DNA of 58,760 bases from a virus (taxonomy: Duplodnaviria; Caudoviricetes). Below the pieces are notes generated by a model. That model saw only the letters and a program-made list of their open reading frames with translations, searched no databases and had not been told where the DNA came from. The stretch covers positions 1-58,760 of IMG/VR virus record IMGVR_UViG_3300037502_000670, one strand, 5' to 3'. This document shows, piece after piece, positions 1 to 30,176 of this stretch (position 1 is its first letter; every line of letters begins with the position of its first letter). A program made the position numbers and the translations under genes.

Positions 1-127
1 GGCGAAGCCCTTGATGCTGCCGAGAGCAAATTGCTCCGTGAAGCTGCCGGTATCACGGTCGCTGCCCGTAAGGAACTGTTCGACAAGATCGGCACTGTTA
101 CCGTGGACAAGGCGGGACGCGCCACTG
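1..127. repeat. Terminal direct repeat, identical to 58634-58760 (circular assembly overlap)
   Basis: GGCGAAGCCC...CGCCACTG occurs at both ends. The length of 127 equals a common assembler k-mer, and the reading frame continues across the junction. Confidence 0.95.
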
Positions 128-3100: not shown

Positions 3101-6100
3101 ACGAGCGGCTGGCGGACTTCATCCGCCACACGAATGCTGTACCGCGCGACCTCAAGTCGGCAGGCAAGGTGCTGGGTGACGCAGCAACATCTTGGGACAA
3201 GTTCAAGGAGAAGGTGTTCAGCCTCGCCAACTATCAGGCGCTGCGGAACCCCGGCCTCTATGCGTTCGAGAAGCTGCTGGACGAAACCCGCCAGCGCGAG
3301 CAGTACGTGTACAACAAGTACAACGCCAAGCTGGAAAGCCTGCTCTACAAGTCCGAGGACCACCGCAACCGTGTCAGCCGGATGCTTCTGGGCGCGCGCA
3401 CCGTGGCGGTGTACCGCCTGCTGGAAAAGCCGCTTACGCTGGCTGAGCGCAACAAGGCGCTGTTCTCTCTGGATAATGACGGCAACCTGATTGCCGATGT
3501 CCGCGCCGTCGATGAGTTCATCAATCGCGGTATGCTGACGTTCGAGGAGATGCGCGATGGTGTCGAGTACACCCGCGAGATCATGTCTCCCGATGGCACC
3601 ATGGAGCGCCGCACCGAGAAGTTCCCCGGCTTTGCCGACCTGACGCAGGAGCAGTATGACGATTACGTGCTGTCGCGCCGGACCGTTGGCGAGGTTGAGA
3701 TGGAGCTTCTGGAAGCCAAGTATGCCAACATGCTCCACACCGAGGGTGTGTCCAAGAAGGCGATCCGCAAGCTGGTCAAGAACGGCAAGCTGGATGGTGA
3801 TGCCGAGAAGCTCGTAGACAAGACGCTCAACAAGTACAAAGAAATCTACGTGTCCGGCTACACGGTCGATGCCCGTGGTAATATCGCTCCGGGCCGCGAA
3901 GAGATCGACCGCGCCGATGAGTTCCTTGCGATGGTTAATCGCGCGCTGATCAGCGCCGATGCCAAGAACGACCCGGATGTCCGCGCCTTCTTCGATAACC
4001 AGTCGGACGCCGATGACTTCATGGTCAGCCTTGAGGATTTCCGCAGCAAGCGGAAGGTGCCGGACGGCGAGTTGACCTTCCTGTTCCAGAACGAGATCAA
4101 GCGCATCATCCTCGATGACGTGAGCCTTGGTGTCGAAGAAGAACGCGCCAAGCGTACCATGGCTGGCGGCTACGTCCCGGTCATCCGCGACAAGGCTTTC
4201 GAGATGCGGCTGCAGGCTTATGACGAGAACGGCAATCCGGTCCGTCTGCATGAGAACCACCGGGCACTGCTGAACTACAGCCAGTTCGACAACGCCAGTC
4301 AGGCAAGCAACGCTGCCGACATCCTCAACGCCGAGCTTGACGGCCAGACCATGGACGTTCTGGTTCAGCAGGATGACGGCAGCTACAAGCAGCAGACCGT
4401 GACAGTCCGCGCCGAGTTCGGTGAGGCGCTTTCGCAGGTGTCGGCTGACCCGGCACTGAACCTTGATGAGTTCATGCACGGCCTGCGGCTGTTCAAGATC
4501 AATCTGACACCTGACAAGATGTCTCTCGTCATTCGTACCCTGACCGAGGCAGGCGATCAGCTTCGTAAGCGCATGGAGTTCAGCAATACTCCGGGCTACG
4601 ACAAGGACAGCGGCGTGTTCGCCATGGCACGACATATCCAAATGCGTGCTGCCACCATCGCCAAAACGATCACTCGCCCGCGTATGCGCGACCTCATGGA
4701 CCGCAACAACAGCGAGAGCATGGACCTGTGGACCGGCGACCTTGGCGGGGTATTCTCCACCTACAACCGCTGGAACGCTGCGACTACCCCCGAGGAGAAG
4801 CAGCACTATCGCCACCAGCTTGACCACAAGCTGTTCATGTTTGCTGAAACATATCCCGGCGCGAAAGGCTGGGATGGATCGAAGGCAGGCTACGACCGGC
4901 TCAAGGCCGAGGGCAAGCTGCAGGAGTACAACTACAACCGGTTCTACAACTCAGCCCAGAGCACGCTGGACTTCCTCGACAACAACCGCTTCGTCACCGA
5001 GAGCAACTTCGGTGTGGGTCGTGTCGCGTCCGGCCTGCGGGCAGCAACCAGTATCTTCCAGCTTGGTGGCTCCATCGCGCAGGGCGTGATGAACATGGTG
5101 TCGCCTTACACCAACTGGCTACCGTATATGGCGAGCTACAACTCCCGCAACGGTTTCGGCGGCGGCTTCGGTGTCGGTCAGGTGATGGCTGCCTATCAGG
5201 TGGCGCTGAACCAAGTGGGTCTGCCCGGTATCGCGGGCACCAAGTTCAATACCGCTGAGTATTACGAAGCCCTGCTGAACGACCCGGCGGCGCTTGCCAA
5301 ATCCAACCTCACCCAAGAGGAAGCGGCCTTCCTCGCACTGGAAATCCGCGAAGGTAAACTTATCCCTGCTCAGTCGAACGCCCTGCTGGGCACTGCTCGT
5401 ACTGGGATTACCAACCGCTGGCTGCTGCGCGGCGTCGATGCGTTCATGCTGCCGTTCAACCGGACGGAACAGGCGTCTCGCCGTGCTGCCGGTCTCGCGG
5501 CTTTCCGTCTGGCAATGAAGCGCAACGGCGGTGATGTTGCCGCTGCCCGTGACTTCGCCATCCAGTCGCTCGACCTGACGCTGGGTGAATACTCCGTGCT
5601 GAACCGTCCGCCCGTGTGGCGCGATGGCATCCAGTCGTTCCTCTACATGTACAAGGTATATCCGACGACGACCATCCAGCTTCTGCGCCGCCTCGACAAG
5701 AAGGGCCAGATCATCATGCTGGGCACCTTGTGGCTATTCGCTGGTGTGACCGGCTTCCCCTTCGCAGAAGATATTGAAGACTTGGTTGACACCATTGCGC
5801 AGGCACTTGGGTTGCAGATGGGCAGTGTCCGGGCTGAGTTCGTAAAGATACTGGAGGGCCTTGCACCGGGCGTTTCGCCCTACGTGCTGAAGGGTGCCGT
5901 GAACACTGCCCTTGGTATCCCGGCTGACGTGGCTTCGCGGTTCAGCCAAGGTGACTTTATCCCCGGCTCCGGTCTGCTGCTGGCTGGTTCCACCATCGGT
6001 GAGGAAGTGAAGGACATCCTTGGACCCATGCCAGCCATGGTTCTTGGCGCAGCGACCTTCACCCGCGATATCGCGGCGGCTCCGTTCTCCGAGGGCCAGA

Positions 6101-6588
6101 CGTTTGTGGATGCGCTGCGGGCTTCGCCCGTTACGCTGGGCCGCATGTTTGGTGACACTTATGCCTACATGGCAACTGGTGCCATCGTTGACCGCCGTGG
6201 CTACGTGGTATCACCTGACATGACCATCGGCACGCTTGCCGCCCGTCTCATGGGCTTCTACCCCAAGGCAGCAGCCGAGCAGTATGACGCCATTCGTATC
6301 GCCAAGCGAGTGAACAACTACCAGAAAGAAATTGTGGCGGGCTACCGCACCGCTTGGGTACAGGCCATGCTCACTGGCAACCGGGCCTATGCCCGCCAGA
6401 TCGAACAGTCAGTGATCGAGTGGAACCGCGCAGCCAAGGGCACGCAGCTTGAGATTTCCAACTTCGTGAAGAATTCCCAGCGGGCTCTGAAGGAAGCACG
6501 GCGCAGCGCGGTCGAGCGTACGCTCAAGTCCACGAGTAAAGCAGGACGCGAGGAAGCGTCCCGCCTCATGGATCAGATGATCGAGTAG
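1..6588 (+). CDS. Giant internal virion/ejection (polyvalent-type) protein, C-terminal part; full gene join(57824..58633,1..6588), ~2465 aa
   Basis: Frame is open from base 1 and continuous with the ORF starting at 57824. It has a Gly/Ala-rich N-terminal region, a Pro/Ala linker and a zincin-like LAHETLGHFGL motif. It is the last gene of the ejection-protein block. Confidence 0.8.
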   Translation, partial: GEALDAAESKLLREAAGITVAARKELFDKIGTVTVDKAGRATVYTADDAAKALLGPAAARAAAGGATQAQVGGAALATGLQNYATGVADLFGESVEGGQPDRLMAALGAVPYAAAETIPEYLAALRLFKGLGLKAAQTGARGGRAGTIATNVGIGAGAGAVLEGATETFQEALGLGMNAAVDVDSPEGISRLLNAFAAGAAIGGFIGGASSLNTGKATDLLSGGTKPAEQGGQTLTGEVIPPGGPRPVPTPDGSVPRLAAPTAEALPPPAVGIPGGMAPETAVSPTVPPTQPSMLSAPSLQLPAPPAPAQAAPAAAAPPVIPMGGPATGSALQQAAEGTLTGGIPTGPLANRLLQQQAAAREQARQAQLQATSGSALARIGRGEAVGMTPPAAAPQQLELPLPAGRQRLTRGKRGEPSAAQVRQVAESDQQQYPQDRTRVGGRRVNRVVPTEVQAEGRPAGGRNRLVQGAPPAQVQEAQQQPRAEVTVTKTKRDLKRGVTVVTLSDGREVSISKEKGGGSFFEGWYLEGVGGRPSEQMSRGYLGTTLEEAKAEIAKRASEGRLEQPAAQAPAPAPEPAAPPKKERQRIPKLSLKPEEPSPKAAGVAAAPAQKAEPSTALTVVSENEHFIEPEVEAKMKREQAELAETERLATQDDAGEVNDLIVALNTLDPADVDYRDALSALLGFAKDSSVNKDVRKRAQDYLENEVEPEAVKLAERSTMEPVSQAELDRSTIVTAMEQFNNGEITLTQKIVGVLVSAWKRIKPLNLTYGDQPLADFIKGGPQFFNIEKGKVVPKGQGRYSTTMWDVADKPMNVGAIKLKIGKFVSGFASKPQVYVFRNQADLKASAPKLYARAAAGRPGDFDTVNAAGYSLGNEVIIFSDRIGSDQHLAFVLAHETLGHFGLRALMGGSDFDRVMTKLYDTDPRLKAAVDAAMAVRGLGKAEAVEEYLSDYAAQLHTSLVRRIWKSLKGVLNRVGIQFGDEATRYLLSQAKRYVKTGERTGAFNTSSVLHRMWGVETGQVGRFSVVDVANENERLADFIRHTNAVPRDLKSAGKVLGDAATSWDKFKEKVFSLANYQALRNPGLYAFEKLLDETRQREQYVYNKYNAKLESLLYKSEDHRNRVSRMLLGARTVAVYRLLEKPLTLAERNKALFSLDNDGNLIADVRAVDEFINRGMLTFEEMRDGVEYTREIMSPDGTMERRTEKFPGFADLTQEQYDDYVLSRRTVGEVEMELLEAKYANMLHTEGVSKKAIRKLVKNGKLDGDAEKLVDKTLNKYKEIYVSGYTVDARGNIAPGREEIDRADEFLAMVNRALISADAKNDPDVRAFFDNQSDADDFMVSLEDFRSKRKVPDGELTFLFQNEIKRIILDDVSLGVEEERAKRTMAGGYVPVIRDKAFEMRLQAYDENGNPVRLHENHRALLNYSQFDNASQASNAADILNAELDGQTMDVLVQQDDGSYKQQTVTVRAEFGEALSQVSADPALNLDEFMHGLRLFKINLTPDKMSLVIRTLTEAGDQLRKRMEFSNTPGYDKDSGVFAMARHIQMRAATIAKTITRPRMRDLMDRNNSESMDLWTGDLGGVFSTYNRWNAATTPEEKQHYRHQLDHKLFMFAETYPGAKGWDGSKAGYDRLKAEGKLQEYNYNRFYNSAQSTLDFLDNNRFVTESNFGVGRVASGLRAATSIFQLGGSIAQGVMNMVSPYTNWLPYMASYNSRNGFGGGFGVGQVMAAYQVALNQVGLPGIAGTKFNTAEYYEALLNDPAALAKSNLTQEEAAFLALEIREGKLIPAQSNALLGTARTGITNRWLLRGVDAFMLPFNRTEQASRRAAGLAAFRLAMKRNGGDVAAARDFAIQSLDLTLGEYSVLNRPPVWRDGIQSFLYMYKVYPTTTIQLLRRLDKKGQIIMLGTLWLFAGVTGFPFAEDIEDLVDTIAQALGLQMGSVRAEFVKILEGLAPGVSPYVLKGAVNTALGIPADVASRFSQGDFIPGSGLLLAGSTIGEEVKDILGPMPAMVLGAATFTRDIAAAPFSEGQTFVDALRASPVTLGRMFGDTYAYMATGAIVDRRGYVVSPDMTIGTLAARLMGFYPKAAAEQYDAIRIAKRVNNYQKEIVAGYRTAWVQAMLTGNRAYARQIEQSVIEWNRAAKGTQLEISNFVKNSQRALKEARRSAVERTLKSTSKAGREEASRLMDQMIE
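1253..1459 (+). CDS. Overprinted small basic protein (68 aa, MPLKSGKSQKVISSNIRK...KAVQQAVAIALSKAR) nested in an alternative frame of the giant gene
   Basis: GAGGAG SD at 1241-1246 lies 6 nt before GTG 1253. The product resembles the widespread phage MPLKxGKSxKxISxNI...QAVAIALS small-protein family. Confidence 0.7.
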   Translation: MPLKSGKSQKVISSNIRKIVREWEGDGSIGSSRPKSKRKAVQQAVAIALSKARPRPKSKKPSSSRGQR

Positions 6589-9429
6589 TCAGACCACGAC
6601 CTGTAACTGGCCGAATGCCATGTTGTCCACGTTGTCATCGGCATCGTTGAGGATGCCCTGCAAGCGGTCGTGGATCAGCGACACGCCGAACACATAGGTC
6701 TGGCCGATCTTCACAGGCGTATCTTTACCCATGCTGTACTTGCCTGACTTCGGTGTAGCGTCCACGCCTTCCTTCTCAAAGTCCTTAGTGATCTGGTTGT
6801 AGTCACCACGGTTGGCTGTGACCCACTGCTTGAAATGTATCTTGTCCACCATGATGGTGCCGTGGGTAAAGTTACCACCGGATGTATTGCGATACACGTC
6901 GATCCTGATACGGATGCCGCTGCGCGGTAGCCGGGTGTAATCGAATGTCGGCTTCTGCCCCGTGGTGTGCATGACCGTCAGCGAGGCTGCGGCATTGTCG
7001 TTCATGTAAGCGGACAGTACGTCGAAGCAGTCCATCTTCACGGTCGTCATGGACGAGCGGATAGCACCAAGCTGGTTCAGTACGTAGAGCGTACCCTTGG
7101 TATAGTCATACTGGATCAGCCCCAGTTCATACGCCAGCTTGTTGGCGAAGTCGGCAAGGATAATGGCGTTCTCCCAGAAGCGTTCCTGTCCGGAGAAGTC
7201 GGCGTTGTACTTCTTCTTGAACTCCACGATGTGCTCCGCGATCATGGCCCGCAGACCAGTCTCGCCTATTGACACAAGATGTTTCAGGAAGACCTCACCC
7301 ACTGCACCGTGGTGCTCCATGGCGAAGTTGTAGATCATGCGCCCCGCATCGGTCGAACGGGTGAACAGCGGATGGGGGTGCATGTTGATCTCAAGGATAC
7401 GCGCCATCTGCGCGTCAGTATCCATACCGGATGTGAACAGCTTCGATGCCAGTGAGCGGTTGGCGCTGGTGGTGCAGGGCGTAGCCCACGTCCGGGCTTC
7501 CTTCTCCTCAGATGTCTTGGTGAGGCGGGCCTTGTCGCGGCCCTGAGAAACCCAGTAACAGAAGTCACCGACCTCCTTGTCCGGCATCATGGTGGCTTCA
7601 TCAATCGTCACCGGCAAGTTATTGTACAGACCGAAACGAGAGAACACCGCGTTCTGTGTGAACTTGGCTGAGAAATGCAGCTTGGCTGGGTCACCATAGA
7701 TCGACTGCTGCAGCACCTGTGCCAGCGTCTTGCCAGCGCCTGTCGGCCCGCAGAGATTGATCACCAGACCCTTGAGCCCGGTGAACTGGTAGAGCGGTGC
7801 GGAGAAGCCGACACCCAGCACAAACATATGGACAGGCATGTTAGCCTTCTGCAGTAGCGATGTGAACTGCGCCCACTCATCCACGGTGCCCTTCGTGCTG
7901 TACAGGTTCTCAGTCACGCGCTGTGACTGGGATGCCATCGTGATGTGCTCAGTCTGGACTACCCCATTGGTATCCGTCTTGAGTATCTTGTCGCCCAGTA
8001 CGAACGAGGTATTGTTTTCCTTCCACCCCATGGTGGAGTACAGGTTCGTGACAGAACGTATCTGCCGTAGGCTGTCCATATATGAGCGTAGCATCTGCTG
8101 GAATGCCCCTGTCTGGTTCTTGTTTATGAGGACGATACCTCTGTCGCCCATCGCTGTCGGAAACTCGCGGCTGCCATCTGCGAGATAGGCTTGGCGGAAT
8201 GCCAACTCTGTCCAGCCCACATGCGGGCGCTTCCAGTGGTAGCGAACTGTCTCGTAGCCAAGCGTCTCATCGTAGCCATAGCCAACGGGGTATATGTCGA
8301 ACTTGCACACGTCGATGTCGGTGCCGTCCACTGTGTACTTGATGCCATCTGCCGTGCGCTTGTAGGGCTTGGGTATCGGAACCGTGAACGCTTCCTGATC
8401 CGGCGCGTCTTCCGCTACCTGCACTTCCTCGTACTGAAGCCCAAGCCTAGCGGGGCTGCCGATCTTTCCGTGGAACCTGCACTTCTTGCAGCCGTCCGGT
8501 CTCTCGCTCTCAAACTTACTGCACGTTGTCGGACCCGTGGCTGACGATCTCCAGTGGTTAAGCTTCTTCAGTGTCGCCGCTTCGTCGTAGCCGGGGTGCC
8601 CCTTGCTCCACTCGACTGCTACTTCTTCCGGCTTGTCGCAGAACGCTGCGATACCAATGAGCCCGTACCAGAACGGCTCTGTCACATCGGCTTGGTTGTT
8701 CACGCCCCACGAAATCTGCTGGCACTTCGCAACCAGTGTCGTTGCATTCGCCGGGGGATATTCTTGTTTGACTGCGAGGTTGTCGAGCAGTGTGGTCGTG
8801 CGCTTGGGTGCGGTAACTGTAACTGCAGCAGGAACATATCTATGAAGGATTGCCGACAGGTCTGCAGGAGCAACTTGGTCTGCGTTGAGCAGCACCTTTA
8901 CTTCGTTACCACCCTTGTGGTTAATCGTACCGGGTGCTCTGAGAACACGAGCACTATCCGTCACCACGGTCGGATCGACCTTGAACCCGTGTGTACGTGC
9001 TGCTTCCTTGAGCCCAGCGGCCAGTGGCTTCCATGCCACGGGGGCAAGCTCTTCGGTCAATACCCAGTACACATGCAGACCATTGCCGCTATGCACGATC
9101 ATCGGCTTCGGCAACTGCGTCTCGGAAATGAATGCGCCTAGCGCCTTGAGCCCCTGTTTCCAGTCGAGGTATGGCTTGTCTGGGCCGCAGTCCACGTCGA
9201 GATAGATTGCTTTGGTAAGCACCACGCTATCTTGTGTGCGTGTGTTCCCGCCGAACGATGACACGGCATAGTACGTGTTGTGCCCCTGCCCGCTCATCTG
9301 CTGCAGATAGCCAGCCAGCCCGTCGATATCATTGAAGAAACGCTGACGCGGATACTCGCCCATCATCGTGAAACAACAATACATTCCACTGGACGGTAGT
9401 ACATGCCGTAAGAAGTCCGGCGTATTCAT
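6589..9429 (-). CDS. Primase-helicase: AEP-type primase, Cys cluster and C-terminal DUF927 P-loop helicase
   Basis: YLDVDCG, HSGNGLHVYW and RVLRAPGT motifs; CSKF..C..C cluster; Walker A GPTGAGKT and Walker B VTIDE. Confidence 0.85.
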   Translation of the reverse strand: MNTPDFLRHVLPSSGMYCCFTMMGEYPRQRFFNDIDGLAGYLQQMSGQGHNTYYAVSSFGGNTRTQDSVVLTKAIYLDVDCGPDKPYLDWKQGLKALGAFISETQLPKPMIVHSGNGLHVYWVLTEELAPVAWKPLAAGLKEAARTHGFKVDPTVVTDSARVLRAPGTINHKGGNEVKVLLNADQVAPADLSAILHRYVPAAVTVTAPKRTTTLLDNLAVKQEYPPANATTLVAKCQQISWGVNNQADVTEPFWYGLIGIAAFCDKPEEVAVEWSKGHPGYDEAATLKKLNHWRSSATGPTTCSKFESERPDGCKKCRFHGKIGSPARLGLQYEEVQVAEDAPDQEAFTVPIPKPYKRTADGIKYTVDGTDIDVCKFDIYPVGYGYDETLGYETVRYHWKRPHVGWTELAFRQAYLADGSREFPTAMGDRGIVLINKNQTGAFQQMLRSYMDSLRQIRSVTNLYSTMGWKENNTSFVLGDKILKTDTNGVVQTEHITMASQSQRVTENLYSTKGTVDEWAQFTSLLQKANMPVHMFVLGVGFSAPLYQFTGLKGLVINLCGPTGAGKTLAQVLQQSIYGDPAKLHFSAKFTQNAVFSRFGLYNNLPVTIDEATMMPDKEVGDFCYWVSQGRDKARLTKTSEEKEARTWATPCTTSANRSLASKLFTSGMDTDAQMARILEINMHPHPLFTRSTDAGRMIYNFAMEHHGAVGEVFLKHLVSIGETGLRAMIAEHIVEFKKKYNADFSGQERFWENAIILADFANKLAYELGLIQYDYTKGTLYVLNQLGAIRSSMTTVKMDCFDVLSAYMNDNAAASLTVMHTTGQKPTFDYTRLPRSGIRIRIDVYRNTSGGNFTHGTIMVDKIHFKQWVTANRGDYNQITKDFEKEGVDATPKSGKYSMGKDTPVKIGQTYVFGVSLIHDRLQGILNDADDNVDNMAFGQLQVVV

Positions 9430-9456
9430 AGGGTCGTCTCCCGTTGGTGCTATCGG

Positions 9457-9485
9457 AACGAAAGGGGGAGCCGCGACACTCCCCC
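9457..9485 (-). terminator. GC hairpin with short U-rich tail upstream of the primase (terminator/attenuator or processing site)
   Basis: Minus strand reads GGGGGAG-TGTCGCGG-CTCCCCC-TTTCGTT. Confidence 0.5.
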
Positions 9486-9497
9486 AACCGTGTGATG

Positions 9498-9806
9498 CTA
9501 CTGCTCCTGACTGAGCAATTCAATAAGTCGCTGCACTCGATCCGGTTGTTCCATCTCCAGTACGTCTGGAGTGGGCCACCCCTGCTCTGTCAGCAATGCC
9601 AGCATCTGTTTTAACTTCAGCTTTACACGGGCCATGTTGGACATACGGGGCTGCTTGCCCCGTACCCATGCGTAATACGTAACCCGTGAAACGCCAAGCA
9701 CCCTCGCCATGTCGGACACTGACAGCAACATATGTCTGCGCAGTACCTCAACCTTGGCGAAGTCTACAGGCTTCGGTGCGTTACTCGTCGTCAGCATTGG
9801 TTTCAC
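9498..9806 (-). CDS. XRE/Cro-like HTH DNA-binding protein
   Basis: LSVSDMARVLGVSRVTYYAWVRG HTH pattern. The start may instead be ATG 9797. Confidence 0.8.
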   Translation of the reverse strand: MKPMLTTSNAPKPVDFAKVEVLRRHMLLSVSDMARVLGVSRVTYYAWVRGKQPRMSNMARVKLKLKQMLALLTEQGWPTPDVLEMEQPDRVQRLIELLSQEQ

Positions 9807-10755
9807 CGATCAGAGCCGCGATCTCGTCAGCGATGTTGCTGGTGGGTGCAGCCACCTTGGGAGCAGCCTTCGGCTTGGGAGCCGGGGCCGGAGCCGCTTC
9901 AGCGGCGGGAGCAGCCGCAGCAAACCCACGCTTCTTGGCAGCAGGGGCAGGAGCCGGGGCTTCCTCTTCCTCCTCCACGACGGGAGCCGGGGCGGGAGCC
10001 GCCTTCACAAGCTGGGGCTTGGGTGCAGCGATTGCAACGGGAGCGGGCGCAGCAACTTCTTCCCCTGTGATGGCCTTGACTTCGGACGAGCCGAACAGGC
10101 TATCGACCGCTTCCATGGTGGGCTCATCGAGGAAGCCACCGAAACCGAACAGCAGCTTGGGGAAGGACGCATCGGTATCGAACGAGATACGGGTCTTGAC
10201 GATTTCCGGTGCGATACCACGCATCGACAGTTCCTTCTGGTACTGGTTCAGCCCCTTCAGCGCAGCGGGCGTTACCTGCAGCAGGTAGATCGGGCCGGAC
10301 GGATCATCGGCAGCCACCACAGCGAGGCGCTTCTGGTCGGCGCAAGCCTTGATCTTCTGGCCCATCGGCGTGACCTTGGAGCCCCACGCATTGTGCGGGC
10401 AGGTGGCGCAGAGATCATTCTGCGGGTCAGTGCTGTCGGCGCTGGGGCGCACACCATCCAGCGAAAAGCAATCCGGCGCAGCCGGTTCAGCATCCGGCGT
10501 CCACTGCTTGGCATACCAAGTCTTGGACAGGCGGGGATTGGCACCGACGATCACCACGTCGAGGTGGGTATTCGGCAGTACGGTCTCAGCATCGCCGTCC
10601 TTGATACGGAAGCGGGCACCCTTCAGCGAGATACGCGGAATGGCTTCGCCACCACCGATACCACCGGCCATGGACTGTGCCAGTGCGGAGGGCTGGCCGA
10701 CACGCTTGGCGAGGTGAGCCGGAACCTGAATGTTGGTCGGGATAAGATTGCTCAT
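9781..10755 (-). CDS. Putative ssDNA-binding/replication accessory protein
   Basis: PRISLKGARFRI N-terminus, Cys motifs, Ala/Pro linker and acidic C-terminal tail. It lies in the replication module and has an AGGAG RBS. Confidence 0.6.
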   Translation of the reverse strand: MSNLIPTNIQVPAHLAKRVGQPSALAQSMAGGIGGGEAIPRISLKGARFRIKDGDAETVLPNTHLDVVIVGANPRLSKTWYAKQWTPDAEPAAPDCFSLDGVRPSADSTDPQNDLCATCPHNAWGSKVTPMGQKIKACADQKRLAVVAADDPSGPIYLLQVTPAALKGLNQYQKELSMRGIAPEIVKTRISFDTDASFPKLLFGFGGFLDEPTMEAVDSLFGSSEVKAITGEEVAAPAPVAIAAPKPQLVKAAPAPAPVVEEEEEAPAPAPAAKKRGFAAAAPAAEAAPAPAPKPKAAPKVAAPTSNIADEIAALIGETNADDE

Positions 10756-10776
10756 GTTGTTCTCCTGTAATGAGCG

Positions 10777-11067
10777 TTAGTACTTGTTGGTCTTCACAGT
10801 GTAGTCAGTGCCAGCGATCTTGCTGAAGGCACGGTGGGCAACGATCTTCTCAGCCATGTCCCTCTCGTCGGTGCAATAGATCAACCGGACACCGCTGCCG
10901 AGGGTCAAAGAATTGGACTGTCGCCCTGACACACGCAGCAGATACCCGTTGTCGATGCGGTAGGCGACCAGTGCCATCTCCGAACCTTCAAGAACATCAT
11001 GCGCCATGGGGCGCGGTGCTTCTGGGTCAAGGTCAATACCCAGCCACTTGCGTATTGCTCGTTTCAT
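10777..11067 (-). CDS. Hypothetical protein
   Basis: 96-aa ORF with GGAGGAG RBS, abutting the upstream gene. Confidence 0.7.
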   Translation of the reverse strand: MKRAIRKWLGIDLDPEAPRPMAHDVLEGSEMALVAYRIDNGYLLRVSGRQSNSLTLGSGVRLIYCTDERDMAEKIVAHRAFSKIAGTDYTVKTNKY

Positions 11068-11466
11068 TTACTCCTCCTTTGCTGTTGGCTTACGCACGTT
11101 CACTTCAATGCGGGTGCCGTAGTTCACACCCGGTGGCACTGATTTCATCTGGTCGATATATCCACGCACGGCAGTCTTGCTGACGCGCTTCTCGAACATA
11201 TCGAAAGCATCGTTCTGCTTCACGAAGTTGAGCATCGCATCCCAATCCGCCACTGAAGCAAAGTCCACCGTGGTAAGAAACGCTGTGCCGTGCTTTGTCT
11301 TGAACGAGGTGACGCCATTGGCATCAGCCTGTTCCTTGATCCAGCTTTCTAGCTTGTCCATCTTGGCAGTGATCTCACCAGCCTTGGCTTCCGCTTCGGC
11401 TTTGATCTGCCCCTTCTTCTCACGCAGCTTCACATATGCTGCGATAGCATCATCTATGGTAACCAT
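11068..11466 (-). CDS. Conserved phage coiled-coil protein of the SSB/helicase cluster
   Basis: Coiled-coil N-half with GVTSFKTKHGT and DWDA..PPGV motifs. CCAACAGGAGAAGG RBS precedes ATG 11466. Confidence 0.7.
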   Translation of the reverse strand: MVTIDDAIAAYVKLREKKGQIKAEAEAKAGEITAKMDKLESWIKEQADANGVTSFKTKHGTAFLTTVDFASVADWDAMLNFVKQNDAFDMFEKRVSKTAVRGYIDQMKSVPPGVNYGTRIEVNVRKPTAKEE

Positions 11467-11489
11467 AGTTCCTTCTCCTGTTGGCAAAC

Positions 11490-13046
11490 TTATTTATTCA
11501 TTTCTTGCTGGATCAGATCGAGCAGGAGACCCTGCATCTTCTGCTTACCAGCAAGTCTATCGAACACCTTCTTTTCTAGCAGGGTGCTTTGAATGTGGAC
11601 CACGTTTGATACGTGGCGCTTCCCGATACGCTCCACACGTCCATTGGCCTGTGTGTACTGCTCATTGCTTGCAATGGGTCCATACCAAATGACGGTGGAT
11701 GCTGCAGTAAGCGTGAGGCCGTGAGCCATTGTAGCAGGGTGAGCGATGAGTACTTTAGGATCAGCGGCGTGCTGGAAGTTATAGAATATCTGGTCACGAG
11801 CTGATGACGATACCGCGCCATTGACCGTAGCCACAGTCCATTGTTTCGACAGTTCGCGTTCGAGCATTTTGAGCGTGCCCGTGAGCGGCACAAACACGAT
11901 GACTTTACCCCCAGCTTCCTCAATGACTTCTTTAACTGCTGCCACGCGGGGTCCACAGTCGAGTTCAATGTGATTACCGTCTTCGCCATAGGCTACTCCG
12001 CAAGCGATCTGGATCAGCTTCATCATCTTCACGGCTTCGTTGACCGCCGTGATGGTGCCATCGGCACCGCCTGTCTCCGTGATGAGATGCTTCAGCATCT
12101 GCTTGTAATGATGCTCTTGGTCCTTGGTCAGTGGTACCTCACGGGTCTGCAGCACGGTATCAGGCAGATCGAAACACTCATCGCGGGTGAACCTGACTGA
12201 CGGCTGCAGGATATGCTTGACGATCTCTGGTGCATCAGGACGAGCAATGTATTTATACATGCTGATCTTCATCATGACCTGATCTCTGAACGCAGTGTAT
12301 GTCTTCGTGCAGAACGGACTGTCGATCAGCTTCGCCAGAGCCCACGCATCGGTGGGTTCATTCGGTGTCGGCGTGCCTGTCATCAGCCACAGGCGCATCT
12401 TGGGTTCCTTCTCCAGCCACTTGCGGAACGACTTGAACCGCTTGGTCGTGGGGTTCCGCAGCACCGCCGCTTCATCCACGATGATGAGGTCGAACATGCC
12501 ATGCGCTTCCGGCGCGATGATGGGGAAGCCATCATGGTTGATGACGTAGAAGTCTGCGTTCTGGCGCAGCAGTTTCTTTCTGCGCTCGGCTGTGCCGTGC
12601 AGCACCACTGCCCTGCGATGGGTCAGGTTCATGTAGACAGCGTCACCCCAGACGCGCTCCAGTGTGGAGAGCGGCGACATGATGAGCACCTTGCTCACGG
12701 CACCTGTCTCGATCAGGTAGTCTGCCGCCCACAGGGCGCTCTGGGTTTTGCCAGTGCCGATCTCGTTGAGTACCAGTCCCTTGCGGTTGACCGTGAGGAA
12801 GGCAGCCGTGTCCTGTTGGTGCTGGTATGGCTTGAACCGACCCGGCCAGTCGTAGTGGTAGAGGATGGGCGAGGGTGCGCCGATACCCAGATTGTTAAGG
12901 GCCTCGACTTCCTCGACCTTGTGGGGTGTGACCACCACCTCCTGCCCACGTATGTTTACACGCTGCGCCGTGGGGATGCTGGCAAGCACCCGCTCCGGGT
13001 TGTTAAGTTTGAGAGCCAGCGCCTTGGCGGATGGAAGCACCAGCAT
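11490..13046 (-). CDS. SNF2-family (SF2) helicase
   Basis: EIGTGKT, IIVDEA, MTGTP, HGLTL and QANGRVERIG motifs. Confidence 0.9.
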   Translation of the reverse strand: MLVLPSAKALALKLNNPERVLASIPTAQRVNIRGQEVVVTPHKVEEVEALNNLGIGAPSPILYHYDWPGRFKPYQHQQDTAAFLTVNRKGLVLNEIGTGKTQSALWAADYLIETGAVSKVLIMSPLSTLERVWGDAVYMNLTHRRAVVLHGTAERRKKLLRQNADFYVINHDGFPIIAPEAHGMFDLIIVDEAAVLRNPTTKRFKSFRKWLEKEPKMRLWLMTGTPTPNEPTDAWALAKLIDSPFCTKTYTAFRDQVMMKISMYKYIARPDAPEIVKHILQPSVRFTRDECFDLPDTVLQTREVPLTKDQEHHYKQMLKHLITETGGADGTITAVNEAVKMMKLIQIACGVAYGEDGNHIELDCGPRVAAVKEVIEEAGGKVIVFVPLTGTLKMLERELSKQWTVATVNGAVSSSARDQIFYNFQHAADPKVLIAHPATMAHGLTLTAASTVIWYGPIASNEQYTQANGRVERIGKRHVSNVVHIQSTLLEKKVFDRLAGKQKMQGLLLDLIQQEMNK

Positions 13047-20808: not shown

Positions 20809-21960
20809 TTACATGCGGACAACTTCACCCCACGGGGCCTTGTCCGCACCATTGGTCACCCACAGCACAGGATGCTCCGGTGCAGGACCAAAGTCATCGC
20901 AGTACAGGTCGGTGAGGAACACGGTCGCCACCGGGTTGATGTTATGTTCCGTCATGTAGCGGAACACCGGGCTGAACGCCGTACCACCGCCGCCATGGGG
21001 AGCAATGGTTGCATCATCGCCACGCTCAAACTTATCGTAGTGACACACGGTGCTGTCGAAGTAGATCACATGAGCCTTGACCGGACACATGTCCTCCCAG
21101 ATTGCACGGAACTCGGCAGCGAACTCGTTCAACTCCTTCTCGCCCACTGAACCGGAGCAGTCGATGGCAACAGCCACCTCACCCAGCACCTCACCGCTGA
21201 TGGATGGCAGGTACATTCCCATGGCAGCCATACGCCTGTTGGGCTTGGCCCATGACCGGGTGTCGTTCTTCTGGCGCTGCACGAACTTACGCAGCACTTC
21301 ACGCCAGTCCACCTTGGGCTGGAGCGTTTGCGACACAAGCCGTTCCATGCCAGCGGAGAGCTTGCCCATCATCTTGGCAGCTTGCGCTGCCTGAGCCACC
21401 CGAACGCGCATCTCGGCCTGTTCCTGCGCTACTTCAGCGGGTGAACCCTCGGCTTCCACCACGTCATCGCCCGTACCGGGAATGGGGTTACCACCGGACT
21501 GACCACCGCCTTGACCGCCACTACCATTGCCTTCCGGAGGTTCCGGCAAGATGTCATAGATACCATCCGTGGTGCCCTTGCCAGCGTCGTATGTCGCCTT
21601 GTTGAGCAAGCCACCGGGAATAAATTTCCCGATCTTCTCGTCGGTGAGAAGCTGGTTGATGACGTAATCGCCAGCCATGTTCCACTTCTTGTGGTTGCGA
21701 CCCTTCACGCGGTAGTTGTGCTCGAACATGGGATGGAACACCTCATGCGCCATGAGAAACTTAAGCTGCTCGTCGTCCAGTTCCTCGCAGAACTTGGGGT
21801 TGAACTCGATCCACTTGCCATTGGTGGCAGCGGTGGGAAAGCGTTCGCTCACCCGCAATTCGAGGTTCAGTGCCAGCGTGCCGATAAACGGCTGTTCAAG
21901 GACCAGTGCGGTCCTTGCCTTGGCAAGGCGCTTTTCGAGGGGCATTGTGTTGTGTTTCAT
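20809..21960 (-). CDS. DUF2201-type metallopeptidase-vWA protein
   Basis: TAATNG, HEVFH (HExxH), Gly-rich linker, MIDAS DCSGS, GGGGT and FLTD motifs. Confidence 0.88.
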   Translation of the reverse strand: MKHNTMPLEKRLAKARTALVLEQPFIGTLALNLELRVSERFPTAATNGKWIEFNPKFCEELDDEQLKFLMAHEVFHPMFEHNYRVKGRNHKKWNMAGDYVINQLLTDEKIGKFIPGGLLNKATYDAGKGTTDGIYDILPEPPEGNGSGGQGGGQSGGNPIPGTGDDVVEAEGSPAEVAQEQAEMRVRVAQAAQAAKMMGKLSAGMERLVSQTLQPKVDWREVLRKFVQRQKNDTRSWAKPNRRMAAMGMYLPSISGEVLGEVAVAIDCSGSVGEKELNEFAAEFRAIWEDMCPVKAHVIYFDSTVCHYDKFERGDDATIAPHGGGGTAFSPVFRYMTEHNINPVATVFLTDLYCDDFGPAPEHPVLWVTNGADKAPWGEVVRM

Positions 21961-22181
21961 TTCGTTTTCCTCGCGTTGATTAGAGTATTCACGTCGTACT
22001 GAAACTGCTGCCAGTTTGCTTTCTGTTCGCGTACTTCCATGTCGGAATAGGATTTCCACCGCATGGCAAGCACTTGCCCATTAGAAGCGTGTCCTCCATC
22101 CACCCAATAACCTAACTCAGGCAAACCCATTACTCGCAACTGAGCGAGTAGCGTTGTCACATTCTCCTTTCTGTACCTCAT
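21957..22181 (-). CDS. Small hypothetical protein (LAQLRVxG paralogue)
   Basis: ATGA-coupled; shares a motif with the adjacent gene. Confidence 0.6.
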   Translation of the reverse strand: MRYRKENVTTLLAQLRVMGLPELGYWVDGGHASNGQVLAMRWKSYSDMEVREQKANWQQFQYDVNTLINARKTK

Positions 22182-23426: not shown

Positions 23427-23608
23427 TTGCGGCGCTCCTGTAACGTAGCGGCCTTGTAGGCCAGCCACTTGAACCAAAGACCGGGTTCTTCCTTCTGAAT
23501 GCGCGTTACAATTTTTGTGTTCACCTTTGTTGGTGACTTGCGCGTTATACCCTGCTCACGCAGGAACTTGGCAAACAACACCGCCTCACCGAACTCCATC
23601 ATATCCAC
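23423..23608 (-). CDS. Small hypothetical protein
   Basis: 61-aa ORF overlapping both neighbours. Confidence 0.55.
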   Translation of the reverse strand: MDMMEFGEAVLFAKFLREQGITRKSPTKVNTKIVTRIQKEEPGLWFKWLAYKAATLQERRK

Positions 23609-23805
23609 CCCTGTAACCGGGCATAAGCCCTCGCTATTTTGAACACGGCAGGATAGTGGCGCTGCACGAAATGCTGGAAGGATATGTGCATACTGGTGTT
23701 ATCGTGGAGGTGCGCTTCGTATTCGGTGTAGATAATATCAAGCAAGGCACCACCCTGCGTTGCCCTTATGGCCCGCCCCACTGCAAAATAGTGTTTCTTG
23801 TCCAT
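23599..23805 (-). CDS. Small hypothetical protein
   Basis: 68-aa ORF with AGGAG RBS. Confidence 0.6.
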   Translation of the reverse strand: MDKKHYFAVGRAIRATQGGALLDIIYTEYEAHLHDNTSMHISFQHFVQRHYPAVFKIARAYARLQGWI

Positions 23806-23808
23806 CGC

Positions 23809-23893
23809 CCACTCCTATCGGCAATGCTGCGATGCAGCACTATCGGCAGGAGTGGTGGGGCTATAGCCCCACCACGTTAGCCCTACGGGCTAA
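23809..23893 (-). promoter_or_regulatory. Structured intercistronic region with three hairpins, one sequestering an RBS
   Basis: TTAGCCC/GGGCTAA stem; perfect palindrome GTGGTGGGGCTATAGCCCCACCAC; CCACTCCT...AGGAGTGG stem covering the SD. Confidence 0.55.
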
Positions 23894-24945
23894 AAGAGAA
23901 CATCCTGATGTGCCACAGCCCACTTGGAAAACGCCGCACTGGATGCCAGTGACGGATCACGCCGCGTTGCAAGGCTGATAGCAAGCACACTGAACTCAGG
24001 CGGCATACGCTCCACATAGGTGCAAACCCGGTCGAAGTTGCCAGTGGTTGCCTTGCTGGCGAGAGCACCGGACAGCGCATAGAGGGTGGAGGGTTCCGTG
24101 GGCACCTCGGAACCAGTGGGGTTGAGCAGGATTGCATCGGGGTTAGGCAGCTTGCGCCAGATACGCAGGAAGCCCGTGAACTCAGCCGCAGGGCCTTCAC
24201 CCACGGCACCGCTGAACGTCTCGTACTCGGCCTCTGGCGGCACGTTACCGACCATGGCACCGACACCCTCCACCCATGACCGGGGAGTGGGGTTCTTGTC
24301 ACGCTGGGGGTCGAAATCGTGCAGCATGGCGGGCTTGAACCGGATGAAGCTGATAAGCTCCGGCTGGACGTTATGGTCAATCGCCCACTTGGTCCAGTCA
24401 TCAAGGTGCGTCTCGTACTCGTATGTCGTCTCGCGGTCGCTGAGATGGCTCAGCACCTTGTTGGCACCAGCCCGGTCCTTCTGGCGATTGCCGGTGGATA
24501 CGACCATCCAGCCTTCCTTCATCCGCACACCGTGGAGGTTACGTGCCTGCTGGACGTTGGCGAGGACTTTCTGCAACTCTGCACCGCACTGGTTGCGGTC
24601 ATCGAAGCAGATGAACCCCCGTTCCGGCAGGTCATCCCTGTACTCGGCAGGGAACCAGTCCGGCACCTTGTACCCAAACGTATTGCTCTCCGTGTTCAGC
24701 ATGTCAGGGATGCCGAAATCCTCCACCACCATGGTGGGCATGTGCTTCTCGACATAGCCGAACTCGTTATCCCCGAACACCTGACAGGAGCCGACATAGT
24801 GGTATGCCGTGGTCCCAGCCAGATCAGCCGCCGTATCGCGGACGAGGCTCGTTTTACCGCCACCGGGCGCACCTTCGATGATGACACTACGCTTGTTGCT
24901 GTTGTAGATGGCCTTGAGCGTAGCCTTGAGCAGTTCTGGACGCAT
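23890..24945 (-). CDS. MoxR-like AAA+ ATPase
   Basis: Walker A GAPGGGKT, Walker B FICFDD, STGNR sensor, LSDR and PTPRSW motifs. Confidence 0.88.
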   Translation of the reverse strand: MRPELLKATLKAIYNSNKRSVIIEGAPGGGKTSLVRDTAADLAGTTAYHYVGSCQVFGDNEFGYVEKHMPTMVVEDFGIPDMLNTESNTFGYKVPDWFPAEYRDDLPERGFICFDDRNQCGAELQKVLANVQQARNLHGVRMKEGWMVVSTGNRQKDRAGANKVLSHLSDRETTYEYETHLDDWTKWAIDHNVQPELISFIRFKPAMLHDFDPQRDKNPTPRSWVEGVGAMVGNVPPEAEYETFSGAVGEGPAAEFTGFLRIWRKLPNPDAILLNPTGSEVPTEPSTLYALSGALASKATTGNFDRVCTYVERMPPEFSVLAISLATRRDPSLASSAAFSKWAVAHQDVLF

Positions 24946-24971
24946 TCTATGTGTTTCCTGTTGGTTGTTGT

Positions 24972-25023
24972 GGTCTCATCAGGCGGTGCATGACACCGCG
25001 ACCGCCGCTAGGCGGTTTCGACC
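24972..25023 (-). ncRNA. Type II hammerhead ribozyme
   Basis: GGUC-GAAA-CCGCC(UAGC)GGCGG-UC^GCGGUG(UCAUG)CACCGC-CUGAUGA-GACC. All core nucleotides, three perfect stems and a GUC triplet are present, in an intergenic position. Confidence 0.9.
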
Positions 25024-25032
25024 TTATGTTTG

Positions 25033-25311
25033 CTACACCGGAGCCACTGGTGTGTCGTCATCCTCATCGCTGTCAGCCCAGTCATCCTCGCTGAAATCAA
25101 AGTCACCGGGATATGCCAGCACTGGTTGCTCCAGTGCCGCCTTGAGGCGATCCACCGTGGTGGTGAGCGATCCGATATCCTCCCCAGTGAGGAAGGGTTC
25201 GCCATGGGCGTAGGGCTTGCCTTGCTTGTTGTAGAACACCTCCACCAGTGACAGGGTGAGTTCGAGCGTTTCATCATCCACAGTGCGGATAACTCGGTGG
25301 TTCCAGTACAT
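25033..25311 (-). CDS. Conserved small phage early protein
   Basis: MYWNHRVI...LVEVFYN...ALEQPVL pattern; GAGG RBS. Confidence 0.7.
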   Translation of the reverse strand: MYWNHRVIRTVDDETLELTLSLVEVFYNKQGKPYAHGEPFLTGEDIGSLTTTVDRLKAALEQPVLAYPGDFDFSEDDWADSDEDDDTPVAPV

Positions 25312-26169: not shown

Positions 26170-26700
26170 CTTAAGATGTGTAAGGTTTGTATAGTTTGAT
26201 AGTGGTGAAGGTGTAAGGTTTGTAAAGTTGTTAAGGCAAGGCGTGTAAAGTAGCAAAAATGATTTGTAAAGTAGCAAAAAATGGAGGCGGGTATCTGAGT
26301 ATTAGAGATAGTGAATATAGGAACAAAACCAATGGGTTAGTGTGTAAAGAAAGGCAGGTATCTAAACTATCTAAGTTTTTGGAGGTAATGTGGTGCTAAA
26401 AAATTTTTTGGACGAATGTCCCAGTTAAGTTGTAAAGCAGTGTCGTTCTACATTTGTTCCAAGAATTATTTTGCGGTGTCGTGTAACCCAAAAACCCTTA
26501 TTATTTAGATTTTCTGTCTAATATAATATATATATATAGGAGCCAACCCCTTGGTTTTACTGCGTTTCCTTGGTGTAAAGTGTAAACTTCTAGGAATAAT
26601 GTCGGTTAAGTTTCGTTTTGCTAGTTTACATTGTCTAGATACTTAACAAGTTTACACAGCTAGATGCCCAAGTTTACAGTGTTAAGTCGTGTTAACGCGC
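26170..26700. other. AT-rich non-coding region, putative replication origin/regulatory hub
   Basis: No credible ORF. Many TGTAAA/TTTACA and TATCTA/TAGAT repeats, direct repeat TGTAAAGTAGCAAAAA, and a (TA)n tract at 26519-26538. Confidence 0.6.
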
Positions 26701-26817
26701 GCATAATGCGACCTATAGGCCCCCGACGTATGGTCGAGCGATAGCGAGACCGAACCGCGCAGCAACTAGAGGCTTCGACGTTTAGAGGCGGTCAGTGCCC
26801 GCTGGTTCGCAGACAAC

Positions 26818-26848
26818 AAAAAAGGGTGGGGGCTCACGCCCTCCACCC
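26818..26848 (-). terminator. Rho-independent terminator
   Basis: GGGTGGAGGGC-GTGA-GCCCCCACCC-TTTTTT. Confidence 0.8.
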
Positions 26849-26902
26849 GTAGATGATAACCAGTCCGATAGCGACGAAGAGTAGATAGAATGCAAGTGTC
26901 AT
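26834..26902 (-). CDS. 22-aa hydrophobic peptide
   Basis: MTLAFYLLFVAIGLVIIYGWRA, preceded by CAACAGGAG RBS. Confidence 0.55.
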   Translation of the reverse strand: MTLAFYLLFVAIGLVIIYGWRA

Positions 26903-26950
26903 GTGTTCCACTCCTGTTGAGGTAGAGGGGCGGTTTCCCGCCCCTCCCGT

Positions 26951-30088: not shown

Positions 30089-30176
30089 TGCCGGGGGGTT
30101 ATGTCCACCCATCCCTCGGCACACACCTCCTCCCCTGTTGGAACTTGCCCCGGTAGCCGCCGCTACCGGGGTTTTT
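30089..30176 (+). ncRNA. Putative small regulatory RNA (5' hairpin, anti-SD seed, terminator)
   Basis: TTGACT-N17-CATTCT at 30055-30083; 11-bp hairpin 30089-30121; single-stranded CCTCCTCCCCTGTTGG; terminator 30148-30176. Confidence 0.65.
30148..30176 (+). terminator. Rho-independent terminator
   Basis: CCCCGGTAGC-CGCC-GCTACCGGGG-TTTTT. Confidence 0.85.

Follow-up and report, generated by a model that had tools for sequence, protein, structure and literature searches.

Why should a viral genome carry a sequence with all the parts of a hammerhead ribozyme in the short gap ahead of an ATPase gene, and what would such an element do there? The question arises at minus-strand positions 25023 to 24972 of a 58.76-kb viral record with terminal repeats (the window, meaning the whole stretch of 58,760 nt that we analyzed). 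We favor the answer, at a probability of about 0.7, that the element is a functional type II hammerhead whose cleavage during transcription processes the message between cistrons and insulates the downstream moxR module. A prior sequence-only reading had seen a type II hammerhead immediately in front of a MoxR-like gene, on its coding strand, and both the sequence and the ORF positions bear out this placement.

Read directly, the minus strand holds a complete hammerhead in the type II permutation (24972..25023). From 25023 to 24972 it runs 5′ to 3′ through GGUC, GAAA, CCGCC, UAGC, GGCGG, U, C|GCGGUG (the bar marks the predicted cut), UCAUG, CACCGC, CUGAUGA, and GACC, that is, in the type II order of a stem II strand, GAAA, the stem III hairpin, the cut site, the stem I hairpin, CUGAUGA, and the other stem II strand. 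By sequence and by predicted fold, loops close stems I and III and stem II is open, with lengths of 4 bp for stem II, 5 bp plus an A-U pair for stem III, and 6 bp for stem I. The 5′ strand of stem II (GGUC, numbered 11.4–11.1, 25020..25023, minus strand) belongs to a helix that has 4 bp in every clade member and covaries, occurring as GGUC/GACC, GACC/GGUC, GGCC/GGCC, and GGAC/GUCC; its 3′ partner (GACC, 10.1–10.4, 24972..24975, minus strand) is assigned from the sequence and the clade alignment. The stem is bracketed by two A residues that are invariant in the clade, at 25024 before the 5′ strand and at 24971 directly 3′ of GACC. On the 5′ side, the core residues G12, A13, and A14 together with A15.1 (GAAA, 25016..25019, minus strand) are invariant in 19/19 matches to R1, a model built from 10 clade sequences. 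On the 3′ side, the core C3 U4 G5 A6 U7 G8 A9 (CUGAUGA, 24976..24982, minus strand) is invariant in the clade except at N7, which is G in 2/19 matches.

The hairpins flanking the cut are equally well defined. Stem III (25001..25016, minus strand) comprises the A15.1-U16.1 pair and CCGCC/GGCGG closed by the loop UAGC, and stem I (24983..24999, minus strand) is GCGGUG-UCAUG-CACCGC; each has compensatory changes at 5/6 pairs and each appears in the predicted product folds. A15.1 (25016) pairs with U16.1 (25001), a position that is A-U in 15/15 distinct aligned rows, and GUC serves as the cleavage triplet, its C17 lying at 25000; one relative has UUA instead. From the position of GUC relative to stems III and I, the predicted scissile bond follows C17 (25000) and precedes G1.1 (24999; 24999..25000, minus strand). 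The core, the three stems, and the triplet of the sequence-only reading are thus all present on the minus strand, and its predicted cut at 25000/24999 agrees with where the triplet lies. Both core-adjacent pairs are Watson-Crick, G24975-C25020 (10.1-11.1) and G24999-C24983 (1.1-2.1).

A match to a short motif can arise by chance, and the count of the linear motif by itself means little: without pairing it occurs once in the window against 0.31 expected, and 28/100 shuffles have at least one. A pairing-aware descriptor that demands the three helices also finds one copy in the window, compared with none in 300 simulated windows (first-order Markov sequences with the window's dinucleotide make-up, both strands). 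The minimum-free-energy fold of the gap alone is a three-way junction (z = −2.8; 1/200 shuffles as good), and in fold prediction this junction persists within a 146-nt context.

The search with hammerhead models that the sequence-only reading had proposed gave a split outcome. The best Rfam family is Hammerhead_II (RF02276), at 25.2 bits against a gathering threshold of 37 (E = 0.0032 on 241 nt; E = 1.9e-4 at the same 25.2 bits on the whole genome), and at gathering level Rfam has no match anywhere in the window. The covariance model R2 recovers the element strongly. R2 consists of 13 hammerheads from 7 unrelated viral contigs, none of them from the window's clade, that were picked with R1; with filters off it scores 67.4 bits (E = 7e-15) at 24966-25025 on the minus strand, and the next best of the 13 listed matches reaches 11.7 bits. 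The 58.76-kb window holds no second ribozyme by this R2 search or by R1, which has one match there. In the Rfam model, stem II has 2 bp and leads into a pseudoknot tail, so that the real GACC strand is forced into an insert and the moxR leader is set against the model's pseudoknot tail. The Rfam shortfall therefore reflects the subclass of the element and not a defective core.

Could the element be a catalytically inactive look-alike (a terminator, an RNase III site, or protein-binding hairpins) or a decayed relic? The subthreshold Rfam score and the lack of a pseudoknot (below) would fit this idea, but 15 distinct sequences with differing stems all retain every core position other than N7 and H17, the pairs next to the core are Watson-Crick, neither hairpin has a U-tract behind it, and the descriptor found nothing comparable in the simulated windows. 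We consider inactivity very improbable.

Comparison with relatives suggests that the fold is under selection. Scanning viral contigs with the ATPase yielded 37 loci whose proteins are 97–51% identical to it. A ribozyme lies directly upstream of moxR at 10/10 loci with a MoxR homolog at least 72% identical, and at none of the 27 loci with MoxR ≤65% identical, 2 of which have less than 50 nt of upstream sequence. Since these more distant relatives have no ribozyme at the junction, the element is not essential to moxR expression as such. One member of the ≤65% group, L014, carries one in front of the small ORF that precedes moxR, 243 nt upstream of the gene. Across the window and the 37 loci, R1 has 19 matches, all on the moxR strand, including three unrelated to its training rows (L014:2700, L005:1245, and L006:4053).

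In an alignment of 15 distinct rows, 98.3% of cells in paired positions are paired, against 73.5% in shuffled alignments (0/500 reach the observed value) and 35–45% in slid controls, and 12/16 pairs show compensatory change with both sides altered; this alignment (A3) was fitted to the model, so that pair counts are somewhat inflated, although the margin is still large. The core varies only in that N7 is G (CUGAGGA) in 2 matches, L014 has A at H17 (UUA), and 2 matches carry an inserted U between A9 and stem II. These are positions at which hammerheads tolerate change. Conservation and covariation together therefore argue for selection on the ribozyme fold, and we conclude from this sequence comparison that the element is a hammerhead whose fold purifying selection maintains.

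Several relatives carry additional copies around the same gene. Records G001 (94% complete) and G002 each have two matches, their sole ones, and these flank moxR; two more distant, nearly complete relatives have no ribozymes in their whole records. The extra hammerheads lie at L006:4053-4112, L007:4051-4114, L008:4129-4192, L009, L010, and L011:4092-4155, and L005:1245-1308, so that in L006–L011 moxR is flanked by two hammerheads, which are similar copies. In the printed sequences of these extra copies, the next start codon stands 2–6 nt behind stem II, and the Shine-Dalgarno sequence is formed by core A9 plus stem II (GAGG), or by GGAGG where N7 = G. Because core and stem II make up the Shine-Dalgarno, the ribosome binding site would be paired inside the uncleaved extra-copy ribozyme.

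The element belongs to a subclass without the pseudoknot seen in most type II hammerheads. According to the passages of Perreault 2011 cited here (PMC3088659), in the majority of type II ribozymes, but not all, loop I pairs with the tail behind stem II in a pseudoknot of 4 bp or more, which was needed for fast cleavage at 0.5 mM Mg2+ in the type II example tested. In the window, loop I (UCAUG) and the tail ACAACAACC share no 4-bp complementarity, and across the clade loop I varies without matching changes in the tail; we therefore rejected a loop I/3′-tail pseudoknot for this element. What the clade holds invariant is a 6-bp stem I closed by a G-C pair, a U-NNN-G pattern of loop I on that closing pair, and, between A residues, a stem II exactly 4 bp long. 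The same pseudoknot-free pattern occurs in unrelated viral contigs (13 matches at 7 loci), beside classical pseudoknot types, and the Rfam Hammerhead_II threshold thus misses a recurrent subclass in viral contigs, one that may already stand in Dataset S1 of Perreault 2011. As a separate observation, the 125.7-kb viral contig L051 holds six pseudoknot-free hammerheads within 4.4 kb (minus strand, 7255-11603), one per gap between six consecutive ORFs, two of them with CUGACGA (N7 = C).

With no pseudoknot here, high-speed activity would rest on a putative alternative tertiary contact. Type II tertiary contacts are usually Watson-Crick, and a “conserved reverse Hoogsteen pair” is mentioned for hammerheads, in the excerpted text of de la Peña 2017 (PMC6155905). 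From this pair and from crystal structures of types I and III, we infer by analogy that the loop I U and an A flanking stem II could make a contact between stem I and stem II. A different contact, in which the AUG of loop I would pair with an upstream CAU, had been proposed in the sequence-only reading and did not hold up: of the 8 distinct ribozymes upstream of moxR, only those of the window and L003 have both partners, the 5′ flanks of the relatives are otherwise unrelated in sequence, and AUG/CAU shows no covariation. We rejected this contact as not conserved.

The genomic setting is that of a co-directional gene junction. As first described, the ribozyme sits in an 87-nt gap (24946-25032), which the coordinates of ORF 25033..25311 and ORF 23890..24945 (both minus strand) confirm. 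It lies on the coding strand, 9 nt past the stop of the upstream 92-aa ORF (25033..25311, minus strand, from the ORF list) and 26 nt ahead of the moxR ATG. The first gene 3′ of the cut (23890..24945, minus strand) encodes a 351-aa MoxR-like AAA+ ATPase that matches phrog_1297, “ATPase”, at 1.8e-56. Its match to Pfam AAA_5 (18 bits, E = 0.003) lies under the cut-off, a Pfam scan gives no family above the cut-off, and a PDB sequence search with the protein gives no match. Protein matches in INPHARED phages are all below 60% identity (25–30% among the matches listed), and phage homologs at ~30% identity carry the annotation MoxR-like ATPase; when the 2.4 kb of DNA surrounding the site were searched against INPHARED at near identity, no deposited phage matched.

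With no Pfam family above the cut-off and no PDB match, the name rests on the weak AAA_5 hit, the PHROG, the homolog annotations, and a DUF2201/VWA-like neighbor, and the protein is probably best called MoxR-like only loosely. The neighbor is a co-directional downstream gene (20809..22059, minus strand) with DUF2201_N and DUF2201 domains (metallopeptidase-like plus VWA-like; Pfam 3.9e-48 and 1e-23). DUF2201/VWA proteins partner with MoxR ATPases, and this protein is likely the partner of the ATPase in the moxR module.

Location of the ribozyme inside a polycistronic message is plausible from the gene layout. In PHROG and Pfam scans, tightly packed minus-strand genes form a block from ~28 kb down to 6.6 kb, in the order small ORFs, ATPase, small ORFs, DUF2201 protein, DNA polymerase, exonuclease, helicase, and primase, with a plus-strand structural block beyond 28.3 kb. 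Sigma-70-like sites lie upstream of the ribozyme on the minus strand at ~26.1–27.8 kb, and we found no convincing terminator-like site between them and the ribozyme. The packed block, the upstream sites, and the lack of a convincing terminator between make a polycistron plausible; the “early” timing that the first description gave it is putative. Within the block of small minus-strand genes, ~670 nt (26278-26950) have no ORF of at least 50 aa on either strand; this stretch lies upstream of the sigma-70-like site at 26160-26131. At the left end of the window, a plus-strand ORF of 2185 aa (31-6588) matches, over its last ~500 residues, the C-terminal end of phrog_11358 (9.6e-37), a 3431-position PHROG of unknown function. 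This match, with the ~25–30% identity of the ATPase to proteins of N4-like phages, hints that the ORF may encode a giant N4-type virion protein.

Most ribozymes of this subclass lie near gene junctions. Among 16 clade ribozymes examined, 10 have −1 to 9 nt between the upstream stop and stem II, and 12, by the ORF rule used, have a start codon 2–38 nt behind stem II. For the 13 ribozymes of the same subclass in unrelated contigs, an upstream ORF ends 0–31 nt before the element in 12/13 and a start follows 5–62 nt after it in 11/13, again by the ORF rule used. The clade also reveals a mosaic slot immediately upstream. Between close relatives, homology is lost within the upstream gene and returns 1 nt ahead of the ribozyme, and the genes occupying the slot differ (breakpoints at 2919/2922 in L002/L003 and at 2916 in L007/L009/L011), and at least four different upstream genes stand ahead of near-identical ribozymes. 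One gene seen in the slot, in L004 and L007, encodes a Cys-rich “WWADNMAKC” protein.

Some upstream genes even read into the element. In L002 (2597-2938) and L004 (2715-2933), upstream ORFs encoding unrelated proteins run 19 nt into the ribozyme and stop at a UAA in loop III, both ending in VETGE, which is ribozyme-encoded; the L002 ORF is a homolog of the window's upstream 92-aa ORF. In other relatives, the stop of the upstream ORF extends onto stem II's first base (gap −1 or 0). Judged from these comparisons, the mosaic slot is what an insulator would allow.

The same breakpoints bear on a role at the DNA level, in which the ~55-bp element would serve as a fixed linker or recombination boundary for accessory-gene swaps and RNA cleavage would be secondary. 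Breakpoints coincide with the 5′ edge of the ribozyme in three comparisons, the slot has held at least four genes, and two similar copies flank moxR in L006–L011, all as such a boundary would have it. A linker would conserve sequence, however, and here the stems change in compensatory fashion while only positions of the catalytic core are fixed, which argues for selection on RNA. The breakpoints are equally explained by a ribozyme that tolerates any upstream context, and we judge a primarily DNA-level role to be quite unlikely.

Under the preferred reading of intercistronic processing and insulation, the ribozyme would be transcribed within a minus-strand message spanning the small upstream ORFs and continuing into the gene for the MoxR-like ATPase. 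Hammerheads cleave themselves at a specific site by an established chemistry that leaves a 2′,3′-cyclic phosphate and a 5′-OH. Stems III and I would form as local hairpins during transcription, the active site would close when GACC, the final four nucleotides, is transcribed and pairs with GGUC, and the RNA would then cut itself after C25000. The upstream fragment would retain its stop codon and would end in the stem III hairpin and a 2′,3′-cyclic phosphate; in the predicted fold of this 5′ product the hairpin lies one nt from the 3′ end. The downstream fragment would carry a 5′-OH, the stem I hairpin from its first nucleotide, a C/A-rich leader, AGGA, and the moxR start. Its predicted fold places the first nucleotide inside a 7-pair hairpin (including a U-G pair), with the Shine-Dalgarno and AUG region open in the centroid, so that the 5′-terminal hairpin expected from the sequence-only reading is confirmed at the level of prediction. 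The leader of the 3′ product is 54 nt long (24999-24946), a length claimed earlier and confirmed from the coordinates of the cut site and the moxR ATG.

By this route the moxR module would receive a constant 5′ end and leader whatever the upstream gene, presumably with constant stability and translation, and would be uncoupled from the decay of upstream genes. By analogy with the RiboJ insulator (below), the moxR message may be more stable after cleavage; whether a 5′-OH stabilizes or destabilizes depends on the RNases of the host.

Assembled contigs from sequencing runs, the one form in which these data were compared, touch on the cut site. Eight runs hold parts of the stretch, and four of these were compared. 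Contigs from two RNA-library runs cross the cut (24890-25065 and 24923-25085), as uncleaved RNA or DNA carry-over could produce, and contigs cannot show ends; other compared contigs stop or diverge inside the ribozyme, again as assemblies in which DNA may be present. Run X1, record 4, a 769-nt contig from another sample, matches the window only at 24969-25002 (part of stem I and the core) and continues into a different stem III and flanks, that is, into another ribozyme copy in a different context.

The dependence on host RNases allows the opposite outcome, in which cleavage lowers expression by exposing a 5′-OH product to a host nuclease sensitive to that end (compare glmS mRNA and RNase J1), so that the moxR module would be expressed less or more briefly. 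All evidence for an active ribozyme (core, covariation, and R2) applies to this outcome as well, and in glmS cleavage is followed by degradation by cellular RNases (PMC6765202). Against it, the 3′ product would start paired in a hairpin of 6–7 bp and offer no single-stranded 5′ end to an exonuclease, conserved replication genes lie downstream on the same strand, and in relatives a start codon follows the ribozyme after 2–4 nt and the ribozyme even contributes the Shine-Dalgarno, which fits expression and not silencing. We regard a lowering of expression as unlikely.

The termini left by cleavage could also be joined again. RtcB-type ligases join 5′-OH and 2′,3′-cyclic phosphate ends, and such re-ligation might give circular or spliced RNAs, including a circular moxR RNA where two ribozymes flank the gene, as they do in L006–L011. 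The window has a single copy and hence no excised unit, and no ligase-like gene is found among 48 of its proteins scanned against PHROGs. The possibility is raised in the cited part of Perreault 2011 (PMC3088659), where such products were looked for and not detected. Of the outcomes considered here, we hold re-ligation to be exceedingly improbable.

A broader form of the insulation reading can be offered tentatively, as something that may be so but is doubtful. The element would be a natural “RiboJ” insulator that sets a fixed 5′ boundary of the moxR cassette, and accessory genes would recombine up to its 5′ strand or overlap it without altering moxR expression. In sister lineages the second ribozyme would excise moxR as its own message, with its core (GA plus GG, or GGAGG when N7 = G) doubling as the Shine-Dalgarno of the next gene, unmasked by cleavage and the loss of stem II. 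If this were true, phages would be using ribozymes to make genes modular in a plug-and-play manner and to gate translation by cleavage.

Known systems place the element as a further example of the message-cutting hammerheads of phages, not as something new in kind. Type II hammerheads occur in phage and prophage DNA, often several flanking genes; such clustered copies cleave in vitro and in E. coli, and processing into operon-length or gene-length mRNAs was proposed for them in 2011 (PMC3088659, in the parts cited). The element resembles the type II hammerheads described there (Perreault 2011, RF02276) in core, permutation, phage intergenic coding-strand setting, and proposed role, and differs from most of them, as described, in lacking the loop I/3′-tail pseudoknot and in having a 5-nt U-NNN-G loop I and a 4-bp stem II bracketed by A residues. 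Like the prophage clusters excerpted from the same source (the Agrobacterium tumefaciens ardA region, Clostridium scindens, and Azorhizobium caulinodans; PMC3088659), it lies at a gene junction of a presumed polycistron. The window has one copy and does not show the clustering, which appears in relatives L005–L011; relatives have two copies flanking moxR, and L051 has six between six consecutive ORFs. The associated gene is constant in this clade, a MoxR-like ATPase, whereas gene identities are not constant among the cases in the cited text of Perreault 2011 (PMC3088659).

Three other systems offer parallels. HHphage of haloviruses HF1/HF2 lies in front of an early polycistron, 13 nt from the start codon of its first gene, and a mapped transcript 5′ end falls within 3 nt of its cut site, as given in the passages cited (PMC3088659). 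The element likewise lies a few nt upstream of a replication-type module's first gene, in a putatively early region; by the same partial account, HHphage is a core variant in an archaeal virus, whereas the core here is canonical and the leader measures 54 nt counted from the cut, or 26 nt counted from stem II. RiboJ, the sTRSV hammerhead plus a hairpin, raised transcript ~2-fold and protein 2–10-fold in E. coli, possibly through its terminal hairpin, according to the excerpted report (PMC6206723). As with RiboJ, self-cleavage would strip variable upstream RNA and leave a hairpin-headed 5′ end before the ribosome binding site. RiboJ, as described in that excerpt, is an engineered type III element with an extra 23-nt hairpin placed after a promoter; the present element, unlike it, has its own stem I as terminal hairpin and lies between two genes. 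The glmS ribozyme is likewise a self-cleaving RNA (as predicted here) in a bacterial 5′ UTR that leaves a 5′-OH on the coding fragment; it differs in being metabolite-dependent and in destabilizing its message (PMC6765202), with no hint of a ligand here and an unrelated fold.

The role of bacterial and phage hammerheads is still described as “largely elusive” in the cited portions of two reviews (PMC6765202; PMC6155905). The literature searched, in which the exact pairing was not the query, yielded no link between hammerheads and a MoxR-like gene, and we do not claim its absence. Our comparative set ties the ribozyme to one gene, with only one or two copies per genome, bordering moxR. It also offers near-identical ribozymes with different upstream genes, sister phages without a ribozyme, and overlaps with a stop codon or a ribosome binding site, so that a few reporter constructs could put the hypothesis of insulation and processing to a direct test.

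The leader between stem II and moxR (24946..24971, minus strand) belongs to a wider pattern in this genome. It is C/A-rich, conserved in relatives, and unpaired in the centroid fold, and it contains CCAACAGG (24964-24957) and the Shine-Dalgarno AGGA (24959-24956), 10 nt before the ATG. The sequence-only reading had taken the CCAACAGG box as a special match to a candidate sRNA, and this was not borne out: the window holds 11 copies against 2.3 expected (0/100 shuffles reach 11), and 5/8 minus-strand copies lie just ahead of start codons, with AGGA or AGGAG. Given this recurrence and these positions, CCAACAGG is best understood as a shared motif of leaders and ribosome binding sites. The form CCAACAGG(A/G)G stands just ahead of start codons at 30141, 27142, 20772, and 11484 (minus strand), and the copies at 30141, 27142, and 20772 directly follow a G+C-rich inverted repeat. 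An example of such a repeat, GGGCGGGGGTAGTCAGACCCCCGCCC at ~20800, scores as a terminator on the plus strand. From sequence, this looks like a repeated cassette of hairpin, leader, and Shine-Dalgarno in which the ribozyme replaces the hairpin at moxR.

At the other end of moxR, between the gene and ORF 23599..23805, lies a second structured element (23810-23895, minus strand; −52.1 kcal/mol, z = −5.3, 0/200 shuffles). An Rfam E-value search of 23770-23920 for another ribozyme class returned 10 weak non-ribozyme chance matches. One hairpin of the element covers the moxR stop. The element also holds GTGGTGGGGCTATAGCCCCACCAC, a perfect 24-nt palindrome shared at 100% identity by the window and L002–L005, and a covarying second hairpin enclosed by CCACUCC...GGAGUGG. 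In the modeled structure, this enclosing helix would sequester the Shine-Dalgarno of the next gene, in competition with the 3′ arm of the palindrome. The element occupies the position of the second hammerhead in L006–L011.
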